43,500 bases of DNA from a virus. Taxonomy: Duplodnaviria > Heunggongvirae > Uroviricota > Caudoviricetes. The notes under the pieces are model-generated. The model searched no databases and was not told the DNA's origin. It worked only from the letters and a program-made list of their open reading frames with translations. This document shows, piece by piece, positions 3,801-37,270 of the stretch (position 1 is the stretch's first letter; each line of letters starts with the position of its first letter). The position numbers and the translations under genes are program-made. The stretch is from the IMG/VR virus record IMGVR_UViG_2728369187_000005; one strand, written 5' to 3'.

Positions 3801-4283
3801 AGGTCACCCACCACCACCGATGCTAGATACTGTGAGGTGGTTTTGCCTTTAATGGTGATGTCTTTTTCCGTCACCCAGCCACCATTACGCTGTATCTGAA
3901 CCAGCAGGCGGACTTCCGACGGATTCCGGTCCCCCTTTGAGGTGNNNNNNNNNNNNNNNNNNNNNNNNNNNNNNNNNNNNNNNNNNNNNNNNNNNNNNNN
4001 NNNNNNNNNNNNNNNNNNNNNNNNNNNNNNNNNNNNNNNNNNNNNNNNNNNNNNNNNNNNNNNNNNNNNNNNNNNNNNNNNNNNNNNNNNNNNNNNNNNN
4101 TATATTGGTATTCCCCTCACTGTCCAGCACCGGCGTACTGTTCAGCAGCACGCTTTTTAATCCATCCACCGGACCTTCAACCGGCCCTTCGCTGATGGCA
4201 TCGATCACACTCAGCAGCTGCGTGGACTTCAGGTTGTCCTTCGCTTCGCGCGGGGTATGCCCCTTACTGCTGCCTTTACCCAT
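897..4283 (-). CDS. J: tail tip host-specificity protein J (reading frame interrupted by two assembly gaps)
   Basis: Three ORF segments (897-2003, 2231-4120, 3885-4283) in one orientation; N-terminus [34 protein letters not shown] and internal blocks match lambda J as recalled; total span about 1129 codons. Confidence 0.85.
2263..2332. other. assembly gap (70 N) inside J
   Basis: Run of N. Confidence 0.99.
3945..4100. other. assembly gap (156 N) inside J
   Basis: Run of N. Confidence 0.99.
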
Positions 4284-5702: not shown

Positions 5703-6257
5703 TCAGGCATTTGCTGCATTTATCCTTCGTGATATCGGACNNNNNNNNNNNNNNNNNNNNNNNNNNNNNNNNNNNNNNNNNNNCGTTTCAGTCGGCGTGG
5801 ACAGTACAAAAGAGGCACTGACCGCGCTCAGTTCGCTGCACTGCTCGATGCGCCAGCGGCTGATCACCTCCTGCTCCGGATCGGCTTCGCTGTTTCCGTT
5901 GACGAAGTTCACCGCATCCAGAAAGCGGGCGTAAACCTTACGCCGGACCACCGTTCCGCCGACCAGACTCTGCAGATCTTCCGCCATCCCGGTGATCATG
6001 CCGTGCAGGTTAGAGACCGCCAGTGTCGGACGGGCAGCACTGCCCTTGCCGTTCATCTCAAATCCACTCCCCTGAATGGGATAGGCCTGATACTGCCGAC
6101 TCTGCCAGGTGACAGACTCACCTTTTTCGTTCTGCTCATTACAGAAAAAGTAGCGATCCCCGCCTACCTCGGTCAGGTCGATTTCCCAGAGCACCACGCT
6201 GGCCGACTGCTCCGCACGAATGCATTCATTCAGCGTTTCCTGTTGTATGTCCTGCAT
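5703..6257 (-). CDS. L: tail tip protein L (3' part uncertain because of a 43-N gap; probably continues to about 5630)
   Basis: ORF starting [41 protein letters not shown], lambda-L-like; sits between M and K. Confidence 0.7.
   Translation of the reverse strand: MQDIQQETLNECIRAEQSASVVLWEIDLTEVGGDRYFFCNEQNEKGESVTWQSRQYQAYPIQGSGFEMNGKGSAARPTLAVSNLHGMITGMAEDLQSLVGGTVVRRKVYARFLDAVNFVNGNSEADPEQEVISRWRIEQCSELSAVSASFVLSTPTETXXXXXXXXXXXXXXXPISRRINAANA
5741..5783. other. assembly gap (43 N) inside L
   Basis: Run of N. Confidence 0.99.
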
Positions 6258-29410: not shown

Positions 29411-29483
29411 NNNNNNNNNNNNNNNNNNNNNNNNNNNNNNNNNNNNNNNNNNNNNNNNNNNNNNNNNNNNNNNNNNNNNNNNN
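29411..29483. other. assembly gap (73 N) in non-coding region
   Basis: Run of N. Confidence 0.99.
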
Positions 29484-31987: not shown

Positions 31988-32749
31988 TCACTTTTCCGAT
32001 GCAACATGGCGGGAAGAATCAGTAATCTGTCGTACAATATCCCTGTGCTTGTTCAACTCACGCAGCGCGGCGCAGACACGCTCCCACTTCTGGACATGAT
32101 TTTTCGCCCGACGCAGTTCGCGGTTTGCCATATGCAGTGATGGTAAAACCAGGTCATCCGCTCGCGTTTCAGTAAACGATGGCAGCGACTGCACAATGTC
32201 CGCCACAGTTTCTGTTTTAATATCTTCCTGTGTTGCAGCCTCCTGTACTGGTAACGCAACACCTGCGGTCTGAGGAAAGGCCTTACCATCAGTTTCCGCT
32301 ACCGATGCTGCTTTCGGCTCTGCTGGTAAATTATCGCCCGGTATGCAGTAACGAAATTTACCGCCCTGATTTACGCGAATCAGACGACCTTTGCTGATTG
32401 CCATTGCCAGCGTTGAAGCCACTTTGCGTGATGTGGTACCAAACAATGTAGCCAGCTCATCAGCCGTTTGTGGTCCTCGTTGTTCAATCGTCGCGGTTAA
32501 ATCGCACTCTGAGATTTTCGCTACTGTTGCTGTGGTGATTTCTTCCGGCAGTTCTGCCTGCGCTGGCTGTTCCTGCTGAACGTTGTTATCAGCCACACGC
32601 CAGGTGTACGCGCTTTTATCAACAAAACCAGCCTTTTTCAGTTCCCATAGTTCGTTCAGCACTTCTTCACGACTGATATCAAGTCGCGCAGCAAGTTCTA
32701 TGGATGTGGCTTTTCCCATTGCTTTCAGTGCGTCAAAAACAGTCTCCAT
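31988..32749 (-). CDS. hypothetical protein with two winged-helix-like segments (by position the intact counterpart of the K-12 ydaW remnant)
   Basis: ORF 31988-32800; start [30 protein letters not shown] at 32749 chosen; downstream of ydaV. Confidence 0.55.
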
Positions 32750-32771
32750 TAAATTTTTCTCCCGGTAAAAA

Positions 32772-33518
32772 TTACTTCGCAATTCCTGGCTGGACGACAT
32801 TCGGACGCCAGCTCTCCCAGTTAAAATTCACCCATCGCCCGCCGTTCATGGTCATGCGATCCATAATCCGCTCGCCGAGCAATGTTTTCATGGCCTCATA
32901 GTTCAGGTTTGTCAGCATCCCCACGCTGCGCATCGACGCTGTCCGGCGATCAACAATCTGGTGCAGTACCACCTGCTCGTTTTTCGTCTCGCGCTGAATG
33001 CCAATTTCATCAAGAACCAGCAGATCCACTTCGCACAGTTCCCGCAAAAATTTTTCGCCTGACTGCCCATCGTCATAGCTGGCGTGCAGGGCACTCATAA
33101 CATCAGCCACGGTAACCACAATCACTGTCTGACCGTCTTTCAGCAGGCGATTCCCGATAGCTGCCGCTAAGTGGTTCTTCCCGGTACCAGGTTTTCCGCT
33201 GAACGCAAAATTTGTACACCCGGTCATCAGTTCATCAGCGATGGATTTCGCCTGACTCAACGCGTATCGCTGCCCTTCGTTCTGCACCTGGTAATTCGAA
33301 AACGAGCATTTGCGGTGCAATGGCTGGATGCCAGAGCGATTCAGAATTTTTTCCACCCGCAACTGACGATTCTGACGGTTGATCTCCTCACAACGTTTCT
33401 GGCCTTCGGAAAGTTGCCACTCGCGCCACTCCGCTACCGTCTTGAATGGCGCGGTTACATGTGACGGGGCCAGTCTGCGGATACGTTCAAGAACATCGCC
33501 TGTCGCAATATTTTTCAT
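32772..33518 (-). CDS. ydaV: DnaC-like replication helicase loader
   Basis: 248-aa ORF with Walker [18 protein letters not shown] and Walker B LLVLDEIG. Confidence 0.85.
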
Positions 33519-33524
33519 GGTCAG

Positions 33525-34382
33525 TTACCCCCTGAAGCCTGGCGGGATCGCACTATCCGGTAACGAGACGGTGTTAACCTGTCGGAGTAACGTCTCAGGT
33601 CGAACACCTTTCGGCGCGAACAAGCCCTGGTATTCATTGGCGATGCTGTGTCGAATCACCTGCTCAGGTGAAAAACCCTGCTGGCGGAATTTTTCCAGCT
33701 CCCGTATCGCCCCGTTAGCGCCCTGCTCCGTTCGAATCGGTTTTCGCAATGCCTGGCGAAATTCAACCCACTCACGCCAAAGCGAGACAGAAATCCAGTT
33801 CGGCAAAGCAATATCCAGAGGGTCAAACTTTTTGACACCTCGATTCCCCCGGGGGGGATTTAGGGGGGGATCTGTTTTTAGATCTTTATCTGTATCTTTA
33901 TTAGTTGCCTTTGTGTTGACATCATGTTCAAACACCACTTCAACATCTGTTTGAACACCTGTTAAATTTCTCTCTTGTTTTGTTTGAACATCTGCTTCCT
34001 TTCTGCTTCTTCTGGCCTGAACAGATGCTTTTCCTGCGGCTGATTTTTTGGTTAATTTTTCCCTGACTGATGCCAGATCTTCCTCAATCCGAAGATGCAC
34101 CCATTCCTCGCCGTTATCGCAAAAAAACTCCTGCAAGGATGGTTCAACATCAGCCCATCGCTCGTTAGTCAGACGGGCAATTTTTGCCAGCCTGTTTTTA
34201 GGTATTGGCTTTCCTGTTTGCCAGTAATTGAACATCAGCAACAAATACGCACCATGCTCCTCTGCTGACAAATGCATGGTGTCAGCCAGGTAATCAGCTA
34301 TGTACAGTTGCATGTATGGTAATGCGGCCATAATTGCCCCGTATGATGCTGCCCGGTGGCTTAGAATAAGCACAAACAGCAT
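33525..34382 (-). CDS. ydaU: replication initiation protein (lambda O-like role)
   Basis: 285-aa ORF upstream of the helicase-loader gene; contains internal iteron-like repeats. Confidence 0.8.
   Translation of the reverse strand: MLFVLILSHRAASYGAIMAALPYMQLYIADYLADTMHLSAEEHGAYLLLMFNYWQTGKPIPKNRLAKIARLTNERWADVEPSLQEFFCDNGEEWVHLRIEEDLASVREKLTKKSAAGKASVQARRSRKEADVQTKQERNLTGVQTDVEVVFEHDVNTKATNKDTDKDLKTDPPLNPPRGNRGVKKFDPLDIALPNWISVSLWREWVEFRQALRKPIRTEQGANGAIRELEKFRQQGFSPEQVIRHSIANEYQGLFAPKGVRPETLLRQVNTVSLPDSAIPPGFRG
33925..33990. repeat. iteron-like inverted 10-mer repeats inside ydaU (candidate prophage origin)
   Basis: TGTTCAAACA at 33925 and TGTTTGAACA at 33948 and 33981, flanked by AT-rich DNA. 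Confidence 0.4.
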
Positions 34383-34394
34383 GGAAACTTTTGC

Positions 34395-34817
34395 TTAATG
34401 AACAATGACAGAATCGTCGGAAGAACCGCCGCCGCTGAAATGCGCTTTCCGGTAAACGGCTTGGACTGCATCATCATGCGCATCAATTGCCGTACTTAAC
34501 GCTTCCTGCGCCGCCAGTAATGCACGGCGTTCCAGGGTATCGAAGATGCAGAGTCGGTGACGCAGCTCGCGCGGAAGGATTGCCAGAATTGCTGGGATCA
34601 GCTTCTGAATTTTTTCTCTTTGCGTTTTCGTTTCACCTTTCAACCAACGGTGATAGATATTCTGCTGATTGTTCCAGTCCTTGCCTGGAACCAGGGGCAA
34701 TTCGCCGCCCCCCTGGCGCAGATATTCTTCAGTAATTGCATTGGCTACCCATGCCTGCCCTTTTTCGGCTGCTAGGGCAAACAACACTGATTCGATGTGC
34801 TCATGCTTGATTTTCAT
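34395..34817 (-). CDS. ydaT: YdaT (toxic early protein of the RacR-repressed operon)
   Basis: 140-aa ORF downstream of ydaS, size and order as in K-12 Rac. Confidence 0.8.
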   Translation of the reverse strand: MKIKHEHIESVLFALAAEKGQAWVANAITEEYLRQGGGELPLVPGKDWNNQQNIYHRWLKGETKTQREKIQKLIPAILAILPRELRHRLCIFDTLERRALLAAQEALSTAIDAHDDAVQAVYRKAHFSGGGSSDDSVIVH

Positions 34818-34839: not shown

Positions 34840-35136
34840 TCAGGTATGATCAAATGAGGATTTGTTACTGTCATTTAGTTGCTTCACTGACATATTCTGC
34901 GAACAACATGCCGAACGTCGTAAATATGACCAGTCAATATCAGGACGAAGTTCTTCGCACAGAACCTCACCTCTTGTTGCACGTTCAATTGCTGGACATC
35001 TCTCGGCAGGCAATTGACGTACCCCTTTGATCCATTGATTTACGCTTGGAGGTGATACACCTAAAAGCCTAGCCATTGCTGATTGCCCACCGACAACAGC
35101 ACAAGCTTGCTTGAATGAATAGTTCTCTTTTTTCAT
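34840..35136 (-). CDS. ydaS: Cro-like HTH protein YdaS
   Basis: 98-aa ORF divergent from racR with HTH-like segment QSAMARLLGVSPPSVNQWIKG. Confidence 0.85.
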   Translation of the reverse strand: MKKENYSFKQACAVVGGQSAMARLLGVSPPSVNQWIKGVRQLPAERCPAIERATRGEVLCEELRPDIDWSYLRRSACCSQNMSVKQLNDSNKSSFDHT

Positions 35137-35163
35137 CGAATGAACTCCAAAAACACACAGAAA

Positions 35164-35246
35164 TATTAGGCGACGCCTAACGCAATTGTCAATAGGCTGT
35201 GCCTAATGCGGTAAGGGTAGGGATTGCCTAATGTAATGCGCATAGG
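35164..35246. promoter_or_regulatory. operator/promoter region between ydaS and racR (OR-like)
   Basis: Palindrome TTAGGCGACGCCTAA (35166-35180); 24-bp site aattgtcaataggctgtgcctaatg; extra GCCTAA half-sites; minus-strand TTGACA-18-TAATAT promoter. Confidence 0.5.
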
Positions 35247-35259
35247 AGAATATTAAGCA

Positions 35260-35736
35260 ATGCTTAGTGGTAAAGACTTAGGCCGAGCGATAGAGCAGGC
35301 CATTAACAAAAAAATCGCATCGGGATCCGTCAAATCAAAGGCGGAGGTCGCACGCCACTTCAAAGTCCAACCACCATCAATTTATGACTGGATTAAGAAA
35401 GGCTCTATAAGTAAAGATAAACTTCCAGAATTATGGCGTTTCTTTTCTGATGTTGTTGGTCCAGAGCATTGGGGGCTTAACGAATACCCCATACCAACCC
35501 CCACCAATTCAGATACAAAAAGTGAACTTTTAGATATAAACAACCTTTATCAAGCAGCCTCTGATGAAATAAGAGCGATTGTAGCTTTCCTGTTATCTGG
35601 AAATGCTACAGAACCAGATTGGGTTGACCACGATGTTCGCGCCTACATAGCAGCGATGGAAATGAAAGTGGGTAAGTATCTGAAAGCTCTAGAATCTGAA
35701 CGGAAAAGCCAGAACATCACAAAAACTGGAACTTAA
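35260..35736 (+). CDS. racR: prophage repressor RacR
   Basis: 158-aa ORF divergent from ydaS; size and position as K-12 racR. Confidence 0.85.
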   Translation: MLSGKDLGRAIEQAINKKIASGSVKSKAEVARHFKVQPPSIYDWIKKGSISKDKLPELWRFFSDVVGPEHWGLNEYPIPTPTNSDTKSELLDINNLYQAASDEIRAIVAFLLSGNATEPDWVDHDVRAYIAAMEMKVGKYLKALESERKSQNITKTGT

Positions 35737-36189: not shown

Positions 36190-36345
36190 ATGCAAAAAAT
36201 CGACCTCGGCAACAACGAATCCCTGGTGTGCGGCGTGTTCCCCAACCAGGATGGAACGTTCACTGCCATGACGTATACCAAAAGCAAAACATTTAAAACC
36301 GAAACTGGTGCGCGCCGATGGTTGGAGAAGTACACAGTAAGCTAA
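36190..36345 (+). CDS. ydaF: small protein YdaF (51 aa)
   Basis: MQKIDLGNNESLVCGVFPNQDGTFTAMTYTKSKTFKTETGARRWLEKYTVS; convergent with sieB. Confidence 0.6.
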   Translation: MQKIDLGNNESLVCGVFPNQDGTFTAMTYTKSKTFKTETGARRWLEKYTVS

Positions 36346-36830
36346 CGATTAAAACGTCTACTCCTGCTGTTCCAGAATAACTTCATAAAATGGGAGTATT
36401 TTTCGGTGACGAGATAATAAGAACAGTTTGCGCTATCACTCTGATGTTGAATGATGCCCTTCCGTTCTAATTTTTTCATAACCGGGTTACGGCAAGGAGA
36501 AGTGATAATAAGATTTCCTGTTTTAAGGAAATCTTTAAATACAGCGATTTCTTTCTCAGATAAACGAAGCAATACTCGTTGCTCTGGTAGTAATGAATAA
36601 TGCTTTTGAATATGTGCTCGCAATCTTGAGAAGGAAATGGCGACCACGAAAGAAAAGGCAAAAACGATAATCTGAAAGAGCCAAGGTATTTCAGTATAAG
36701 CATTGAATGCGACAGTAAACTCTTTCGGTATCAGCCAGAGAGTGAGACCAAAAATGATAATCGTATACATAAGTCTTTCGAGTGGCTCGTTAGCAAAAAG
36801 TTTCAATAATGGAGTAAATACATCCAACAT
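36342..36830 (-). CDS. sieB: superinfection exclusion protein B
   Basis: ORF 36342-36953; start MLDVFTPLLKLFANEPLERLMYTIIIFGLTLWLI at 36830; membrane protein as recalled for Rac SieB. Confidence 0.8.
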   Translation of the reverse strand: MLDVFTPLLKLFANEPLERLMYTIIIFGLTLWLIPKEFTVAFNAYTEIPWLFQIIVFAFSFVVAISFSRLRAHIQKHYSLLPEQRVLLRLSEKEIAVFKDFLKTGNLIITSPCRNPVMKKLERKGIIQHQSDSANCSYYLVTEKYSHFMKLFWNSRSRRFNR

Positions 36831-37270
36831 ATCAATAACTCTCAACTGTAAGGGTATTGAAATGTTAACACAAGCTCTCGCTGTAGGGGTATAGCCGAGA
36901 CCACCGAAGCCCGGAGGTGGTGAAATAAAACCGGGCACAACACGAAGGCGCATTTCCGATATCCATAAAGAGTCGGTCTTGTCTGTTAAATTTAAATGGT
37001 GGGAGTGCGCCTCCGGTTGTAAATAACGACATTGCTGTGTGTAGTCCTGGCGGCATCAGTTTTTTCTTGAAGTTCGGCTGATGTCCGCCCTTTTTTAAGT
37101 GAATTTTGTGATGCGGTGAATGCGGCTAAGCGCACGTGGCACAGTTAAAAGTCATGTTAGTCCTTATTGGTTTGGGTGGGAAAGCCGACTGTAATTGTTA
37201 ACTGGTTGCAGTCACCTGGAGGCACCAGGCACCGCATCAACAAAGTTCATTTGTAAAAATGGAGATAATT

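Follow-up and report, generated by a model that had tools for sequence, protein, structure and literature searches.

The 43,500-nucleotide (nt) stretch of viral DNA considered here (IMG/VR record IMGVR_UViG_2728369187_000005; the window) is a Rac-type lambdoid prophage of Escherichia coli, and the subject of this analysis is a candidate replication origin situated inside its initiator gene, ydaU. The gene occupies 33525-34382 on the minus strand as a 285-residue open reading frame (ORF), identified from the ORF list, from Pfam and PHROG matches and from alignments of homologues. Directly downstream is ydaV (32772-33518, minus strand), which is assigned from NCBIfam and Pfam and encodes a DnaC-like helicase loader. 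The candidate origin contains an array of short repeats, an A/T-rich tract and a double C-tract. Over the 1.1 kilobases (kb) around the repeats, identity is 100% to one E. coli chromosome and 99.9% to K-12; K-12 ER3413 has exactly the sequence of 33840-33995, and the origin segment is the same in phage record vB_EcoS-683R6 and in K-12.

A 10-mer and its reverse complement had been predicted to occur three times within 66 base pairs (bp) of ydaU, and they do: TGTTCAAACA is at 33925-33934 on the plus strand and its reverse complement is at 33948-33957 and 33981-33990. No other exact copy in either orientation is present in the 43.5 kb, and the window has no second 10-mer that occurs three times, without overlap, within 70 bp. 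The triple was found in none of 200 Markov-1 simulations and in none of 2000 protein-preserving synonymous-codon permutations of ydaU (just four of which kept both direct copies), and it is thus not explained by the protein sequence. The two direct copies are in the same frame, 33 nt apart, and both encode VQT.

The array is wider than the three 10-mers and consists of five units of approximately 11-12 bp with a GTTSAA core, located at 33912-33992 in the part of ydaU that encodes the linker. With gene nucleotides counted from the ATG at 34331 that begins MAALPY, the unit cores start at nt 342, 375, 387, 398 and 411 (units a-e), and the autocorrelation has maxima at lags 11, 23 and 33 (z = 3.6, 4.2 and 4.9). 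Unit a (33981-33992, minus strand; TGTTTGAACATC on the plus strand and GATGTTCAAACA in gene sense) contains the third 10-mer and unit b (33948-33959, minus strand; TGTTTGAACACC and GGTGTTCAAACA, respectively) contains the second. Units c (33936-33947, minus strand; gene sense GATGTTGAAGTG) and e (33912-33923, minus strand; gene sense GATGTCAACACA) are degenerate. Unit d (33925-33934) is in the opposite orientation and is the first 10-mer, reading as above on the plus strand and TGTTTGAACA in gene sense, where it codes V-F-E-H. Three of the five units are the identical quasi-palindrome TGTTYRAACA. Units b and d are invariant among ~80 aligned Rac-type alleles, and unit a is TGTTCAAAAA in seven of these; E. 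coli 2015C-3107 (L005) also has this form of unit a. There are no DnaA boxes (TTWTNCACA) within 10 kb of the site, and a consensus scan finds no promoter-like site at 33840-33992.

Two outlying copies are situated in the region coding for the N-terminal domain (N-domain) of YdaU. One, TGGTTCAACATCAGC (34140-34154, minus strand), belongs to what is termed cluster A and includes the sole perfect match in Rac to the consensus GTTSAAC of the wider family (34142-34148; gene nt 183). The other, TAATTGAACATCAGC (34225-34239, minus strand), is a further copy of a wider motif, TTSAACAYCWG, which is present five times in one orientation in ydaU, including at 34143 and 34228; the expectation for the window as a whole is 0.23 copies, for a motif that was derived after looking at the data. 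An isolated copy outside ydaU (TTCAACATCAG; 36441-36451, minus strand, in the ORF at 36342-36953) is probably due to chance.

Immediately 3′ of the array in gene sense is a 43-bp tract (33870-33912) that is 74% A+T, in agreement with the A/T-rich DNA that the original prediction placed next to the repeats. In windows of 30, 40, 60 and 100 bp, no other DNA in the ydaS-ydaV module is as unstable, and the tract is a candidate DNA-unwinding element. The tract is a degenerate (GATAMA)n that codes NKDTDKDLKTD, with GATC at 33869 and 33881, and the Rac sequence AATAAAGATACAGATAAAGATCTAAAAACAGAT is a degenerate form of a hexamer tract found in the family. Beyond it is a double C-tract with a G-tract (33846-33869, minus strand), reading C7-TAAAT-C7-G5 in gene sense and coding PPLNPPRG. 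The tracts described earlier, CCCCCGGGGGGG at 33846-33857 and G7 at 33863-33869, are present as noted, with the minus strand coding P172 P173 L N P176 P177 R G; the five-gene ydaS-ydaW module uses CCC for proline only five times, and four of these codons are here. Equivalents of the C-tracts are ACCCCCTATATCCCCC in phage mEpX1 and ACCCCCTTTAATCCCCC in phage SPN3UB and, as judged by sequence comparison, the double C-tract is the conserved 5′ edge of a shared C-terminal module and a mosaic junction. The palindrome CCCCCGGGGG that had been noted previously did not hold up as a conserved feature, because it is absent from close relatives and is particular to the PPRG codons of Rac; the double C-tract is conserved instead. 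A conserved C-G hairpin was therefore rejected, with similar elements in only 4 of 81 loci and none in close relatives.

The N-terminal part of YdaU (34002-34331, minus strand) is a DUF1376 domain (Pfam PF07120; residues 22-104, E = 2.7e-26, 92.2 bits against a cut-off of 30.1), and the full-length protein matches PHROG 6451 (1.2e-123); NCBIfam has no family for YdaU. The domain is a predicted winged helix and is presumed to bind the origin. Replication-initiator winged-helix domains are among the best matches; since the fold is common, this supports, without proving, a DNA-binding initiator domain. Phage_rep_O (PF04492), which lambda O itself matches at 5.7e-36, has no match in YdaU, where DUF1376 is the only one, and BLASTP of YdaU against lambda O gives E = 1.6.

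The C-terminal module of YdaU (residues 172-285; 33525-33869, minus strand) was delimited by tblastn, phrog_678 and PDB 2ru8. From residues 172-176 onwards, tblastn matches the 'replication protein O' of SPN3UB, mEpX1, N7 and others; in these O-annotated relatives the N-domain is Phage_rep_O and the loader DnaC-like, and their C-termini are homologous to the YdaU module, which presumably contacts the loader. YdaV matches NCBIfam PRK12377 (7.9e-153), DnaC (2.3e-92) and the Pfam IstB/DnaA ATPase. Residues 210-285 of YdaU (33525-33755) also weakly resemble the C-terminal domain of DnaT (PDB 2ru8, E = 0.0027; 9zbt, E = 0.01), and an alternative E. coli allele of ydaU has an NCBIfam DnaT tail match. 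With a DnaT-like C-terminus and a DnaC-like neighbor, ydaU-ydaV mirrors the host dnaT-dnaC operon, a parallel that hints at shared phage ancestry.

A protein search with the N-terminal half of Rac YdaU returned only identical E. coli sequences, and a profile of diverse N-domains was used instead. A first viral scan yielded only near-identical Rac alleles, which served as a population sample; a scan with one genome per species then gave 80 further loci, 75 of which, together with four phage loci and Rac, form the set of 80 analysed. The four phage loci encode full-length YdaU homologues and are from Pseudomonas phages UFJF_PfDIW6 and AH02, Bordetella phage IFTN6 and one uncultured phage, and are flanked by cro/cII-like genes and a DnaC-like loader. 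They have 29-47% protein identity and unrelated linker peptides, and all four carry GTTSAAC-core repeats ~11 bp apart in the linker and, ~170-190 bp further upstream within the sequence coding for the N-domain, a second cluster in opposite orientation.

Among the 80 loci, the density of exact GTTSAAC per kb is 7.2 in gene nt 330-420, 4.0 in nt 150-215 and 0.14 elsewhere. The favored positions are 364, 375, 386 and 397, and unit b of Rac agrees with the family positions 375/386/397. The copies are distributed over all three reading frames (30, 13 and 9) because they are 11 bp apart, and the use of different frames indicates that the conserved object is the DNA and not the peptide. More distant lineages have the same layout with another 11-bp word, including up to ~10 units with a AGCAATGC core in Acidobacteriaceae, ATGCTCAGCGA-type units in Bosea and GCGAACGC-type units in other lineages. 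The linker repeat of each locus recurs in its own N-domain coding region at 0.83 per locus, compared to 0.097 per control window. An A-rich hexamer microsatellite is located downstream of the repeats in most loci; it is (GATACA)n with n of at least 2 in 20 of the 80 loci, including some with 61-67% G+C, and (AATCAG)n, (GAACAG)n or (AACCAG)n in others. Some DUF1376 initiators (L115, L116, L118, L120, L122, P0170, P0176, P0190 and others) have an extra domain inserted after the N-domain; these genes are longer, with (GATACA)n at about nt 650, and some of the proteins have HNH (PF01844/PF14279) or other domains. The extra domains look like homing-endonuclease-type insertions.

A natural exchange of the N-domain is found within E. 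coli. An alternative allele in strains THO-008, YL3 and E9 (L002-L004) has an unrelated N-terminal half and linker (PHROG 2509, no Pfam match), and its C-domain (from approximately KKFDP), ydaV, ydaT and cro-like gene are near-identical to those of Rac. It has no GTTSAA units; a 19-bp palindrome, GTAACGCnnnnnGCGTTAC, is present instead in three copies, located shortly before the ATG, in the N-domain coding region and in the linker, and these copies are presumably the iterons of this allele. Identical Rac-type ydaU genes are also found beside different cro/cI genes. Because the swap changes the repeats while the neighboring genes remain the same, the repeats follow the N-domain of the initiator rather than RacR, YdaS, YdaT or YdaV.

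Phage lambda was used as a control. In its gene O the annotated iterons occupy nt 349-433 and are recovered by the same repeat tool; an A/T-rich stretch and a palindrome come next. Rac and lambda both have the repeats within the initiator gene at the interdomain linker (nt ~342-420 in ydaU), and in both ~40 bp of A/T-rich DNA separate the several quasi-palindromic repeats from the C-terminal domain on their 3′ side. The next gene encodes the helicase loader; cro- and cII-like genes precede the initiator, and the region is transcribed from a pR-like promoter, which in Rac is a candidate. The two differ in that YdaU has a DUF1376 N-domain without sequence similarity to O, and the resemblance is therefore architectural. 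The Rac units are ~11-12 bp apart, or one helical turn, in contrast to 18-19-bp iterons at 20-24-bp spacing in lambda; Rac has additional copies in the N-domain coding region and a DnaC-like loader instead of P, and the palindrome that lambda has beyond its A/T tract, on the right, is replaced in Rac by a double C-tract.

Escherichia phage mEpX1 and Salmonella phage SPN3UB, with C-modules homologous from residue 172, have the same succession of iterons, A/T-rich tract with AAAGAYA words, C5-TAWAT-C5 and KFDP C-domain. They differ from Rac in having a Phage_rep_O N-domain and strongly palindromic iterons of ~19 bp (TGTCTCCAAGTTAGAGACA, four copies, and ATCCCCGAAAACGGGGAT, approximately seven copies, respectively). 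The lambda-like arrangement proposed in the original prediction is thus supported by the comparative evidence of position, conserved motif, co-variation with the N-domain, predicted winged helix and DnaC-like neighbor. Other lambdoid origins of this class are those of 434, phi80, 82 and P22. An intragenic linker position, at least 3-4 dyad repeats, an A/T-rich 3′ flank and co-variation of iterons with the N-domain, the C-domain staying with the loader, are all found at the Rac locus, which supports its placement as a DUF1376-type addition to this known class.

The iteron origins of theta plasmids (pSC101, F, P1, R6K and RK2, and those with RepA_N/DnaD-type winged-helix initiators) are organized differently, with 17-22-bp iterons at ~22-bp spacing outside the rep gene and usually with DnaA boxes. 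The Rac array is intragenic and phased at 11 bp and has no DnaA box nearby. The 11-12-bp spacing inside coding sequence and the lack of a DnaA box do not fit a plasmid origin of the RepA/pi/TrfA type.

We consider that 33846-33992, with the outlying copies at 34140-34239, forms the core of a Rac-type replication origin inside ydaU, with a probability of about 0.75. The winged-helix DUF1376 domain would bind the GTTSAA units, phased at ~11 bp and thus presented on one face of the helix, and form a multimeric complex. This complex would strain and open the adjacent 43-bp A/T tract, and the C-terminal module of YdaU would bring DnaC-like YdaV with host DnaB to the melted DNA. We infer these steps of binding, unwinding and loader recruitment by analogy with lambda and from the anatomy of the locus. 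As in lambda, transcription would traverse the site; a pR-like promoter candidate in the racR-ydaS intergenic region upstream of ydaS (35163-35192, minus strand; TTGACA, 18-nt spacer, TAATAT, 10 of 12 matches in a consensus scan) would transcribe ydaS-ydaT-ydaU-ydaV through the candidate origin. The same DNA also encodes the flexible linker of the initiator, and this double duty would explain why codon choice is unusual and why VQT and D-T/D-K recur in the peptide.

Several observations weigh against this interpretation. The Rac units are degenerate relative to the family consensus, with the one perfect GTTSAAC in the outlying cluster, and the three exact 10-mers have a 2-nt rather than a 1-nt center. 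The direct 10-mers are in frame. The loci compared are related by descent, and Poisson P values for the GTTSAAC density consequently overstate their independence. (GATACA)n is read as Asp-Thr in 19 of the 20 loci that have it, so selection on the linker at the protein and DNA levels is not fully separable. The similarity of the Rac A/T tract to lambda DNA is not significant (14 of 300 shuffles, and in the wrong place) and that to SPN3UB is modest (4 of 300 shuffles are as good), although the latter alignment is syntenic; similarity to mEpX1 is borderline (19 of 300 shuffles). In a scan of repeat density, the densest 120-bp window is in the linker in 31 of 82 loci, compared to ~7 expected from target size, but in Rac it is the racR-ydaS operator region; as the scan picks operators in both Rac and lambda, it is supportive and not decisive. 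This densest window of the Rac replication and immunity region lies between racR and ydaS (35137-35263), and its repeats are presumably RacR/YdaS operators around the pR-like promoter. Finally, a published 'oriJ' amplicon is located inside ydaV.

The oriJ origin of Rac has reportedly been known genetically since the late 1970s, through work attributed to Diaz and Pritchard (1978-79) and later to Potrykus et al. (2000, Plasmid 44:111). It continues to be cited as an origin that is active although its prophage is cryptic, and it belongs to the same prophage and the same replication module as the candidate origin. Searchable literature, within which the original oriJ mapping papers do not fall, yielded no sequence-level anatomy of oriJ. 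PMC3945230, and PMC11014345 through its reference 62 (Potrykus et al. 2000), describe oriJ as an active origin of Rac on which plasmids have been built. Primers of De Paepe et al. 2014 are said to 'frame oriJ' (PMC3945230 supplement), and these map to 33107-33261 in ydaV, giving a 155-bp amplicon ~0.6-0.8 kb from the candidate origin. An origin at the primer site itself was rejected, as there are no notable repeats and no A/T-rich DNA there, and the amplicon is probably merely a nearby reporter of copy number. The candidate origin is probably the sequence-level identity of oriJ.

The ydaV amplicon bears most directly on the possibility that the repeats are YdaU sites for autoregulation or copy control, acting by handcuffing or as a transcriptional roadblock, with the DNA opened elsewhere, for example in ydaV or an intergenic region. 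Plasmid iterons serve initiation and control alike, and the position of the 'oriJ' primers favors opening in ydaV; a semi-quantitative polymerase chain reaction product of this size ~0.7 kb away reports only copy number near an origin, however, and it is the ydaU repeats, not the amplicon, that adjoin the least stable DNA of the module. Nor does 33840-33992 contain a promoter-like site, and the order of iterons, A/T-rich DNA and C-domain is the same in lambda, mEpX1 and SPN3UB. We regard control sites with a distant opening site as unlikely.

The peptide repeats raise a second alternative, namely that the DNA has no function of its own and that the repeats are a by-product of in-frame duplications in a low-complexity linker (DVQT, GVQT, DVEV and DVNT; DT/DK; PPxNPP). 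The 33-nt, in-frame separation of the VQT-coding 10-mers, the Asp-Thr frame of (GATACA)n in 19 of 20 loci and the invariable coding of Pro-Pro by the C-tracts are as this predicts. It does not account for the inverted copy, which codes V-F-E-H and not VQT, for the failure of all 2000 synonymous permutations to recreate the triple, or for units of homologues that are 11 bp apart in three frames and so encode differing peptides. GAT-ACA codons moreover persist at 61-67% G+C, and the motif recurs in the coding region of the folded N-domain, where it co-varies with the linker repeat. A linker by-product is accordingly quite improbable.

A shade less probable again is an ancestral origin that has decayed in cryptic Rac, with units drifting from GTTSAAC and initiation lost. 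Only one of the seven Rac units is a perfect GTTSAAC, frameshifted ydaU alleles exist and Rac has been described as replication-defective (PMC11014345). Three identical 10-mers suggest instead a specificity that has shifted but is maintained; units b and d do not vary among the ~80 alleles, the segment is identical in the phage-deposited vB_EcoS-683R6, and oriJ is reported to be active (PMC3945230).

The homopolymer tracts had also been put forward as potential slippage sites, and this expectation was not confirmed. Among 76 IMG/VR contigs gathered with a length-tolerant pattern, 75 are C7/C7/G5 and one (L234, IMGVR_UViG_2711768048_000002) is C6/C7/G5; ~79 of 80 aligned Rac-type alleles are C7/C7/G5, and the tracts are not hypervariable. 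A C6/C6 allele is present in E. coli 2015C-3107, which was chosen since its ydaU is annotated as frameshifted. Slippage variants thus exist but are rare, with no sign of phase variation. An on/off switch of the initiator at C7/C7/G5 is barely credible; runs of seven in an essential replication gene and the two variants speak for it, but the tracts are shorter (C5) at the equivalent place in mEpX1, SPN3UB and the alternative allele, and rare variants fit pseudogene decay or sequencing error equally well.

Returning to an origin inside ydaU, the comparison inclines slightly towards the view that throughout the DUF1376/YdaU family the origin is a fixed module of three parts, located in the sequence that encodes the linker of the initiator. 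This would apply to prophages and phages of Gammaproteobacteria, Alphaproteobacteria, Acidobacteriota, Spirochaetes and other groups. The first part would consist of lineage-specific repeats, 3-10 in number, whose exact 11-bp phasing has them read in all three frames; the second would be the A-rich hexamer microsatellite, acting both as unwinding element and as a linker of two-residue repeats; and the third would be the loader-recruiting domain. In the gammaproteobacterial branch, a second, inverted cluster would lie ~180 bp upstream, within the sequence for the folded N-domain, and could serve to wrap or loop the DNA. If the view is correct, origins and initiator specificities would be readable from sequence for thousands of uncharacterised prophages, and DUF1376 could be annotated as an origin-binding winged helix with an intragenic origin, which would aid prophage annotation, origin prediction and vector design.

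For E. coli K-12, the five units, the 43-bp A/T tract and the two outlying copies, at approximately 1,401,940-1,402,092 in the ER3413 record, would provide concrete, mutable elements of oriJ, and the analysis favors viewing ydaU and ydaV as the O and P equivalents of Rac, and not as functionally unassigned genes beside supposed 'toxins'. The locus would also illustrate clearly how coding and cis-acting requirements can fall on one DNA, with 11-bp repeats in three frames and A/T-rich codons retained even in G+C-rich hosts.

The remaining genes of the module are ydaS (34840-35136, cro-like) and ydaT (34395-34817, cII-like), both on the minus strand upstream of ydaU, racR on the plus strand, and a full-length DUF1627 (ydaW-type) gene at about 31988-32800 on the minus strand. 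The K-12 counterpart of the last is a truncated pseudogene, followed by rzpD and trkG, and of the two Rac relatives the prophage in the window is therefore the more complete. The window contains masked runs of N at 2263-2332, 3945-4100, 5741-5783 and 29411-29483. The set of genes from racR to ydaW is also present in phage record vB_EcoS-683R6. The annotated 285-residue YdaU probably starts 17 codons too early, as the homologues all begin MAALPY (ATG at 34331); this ATG has GGGG ~8 nt upstream, and no obvious ribosome-binding site precedes the ATG at 34382.

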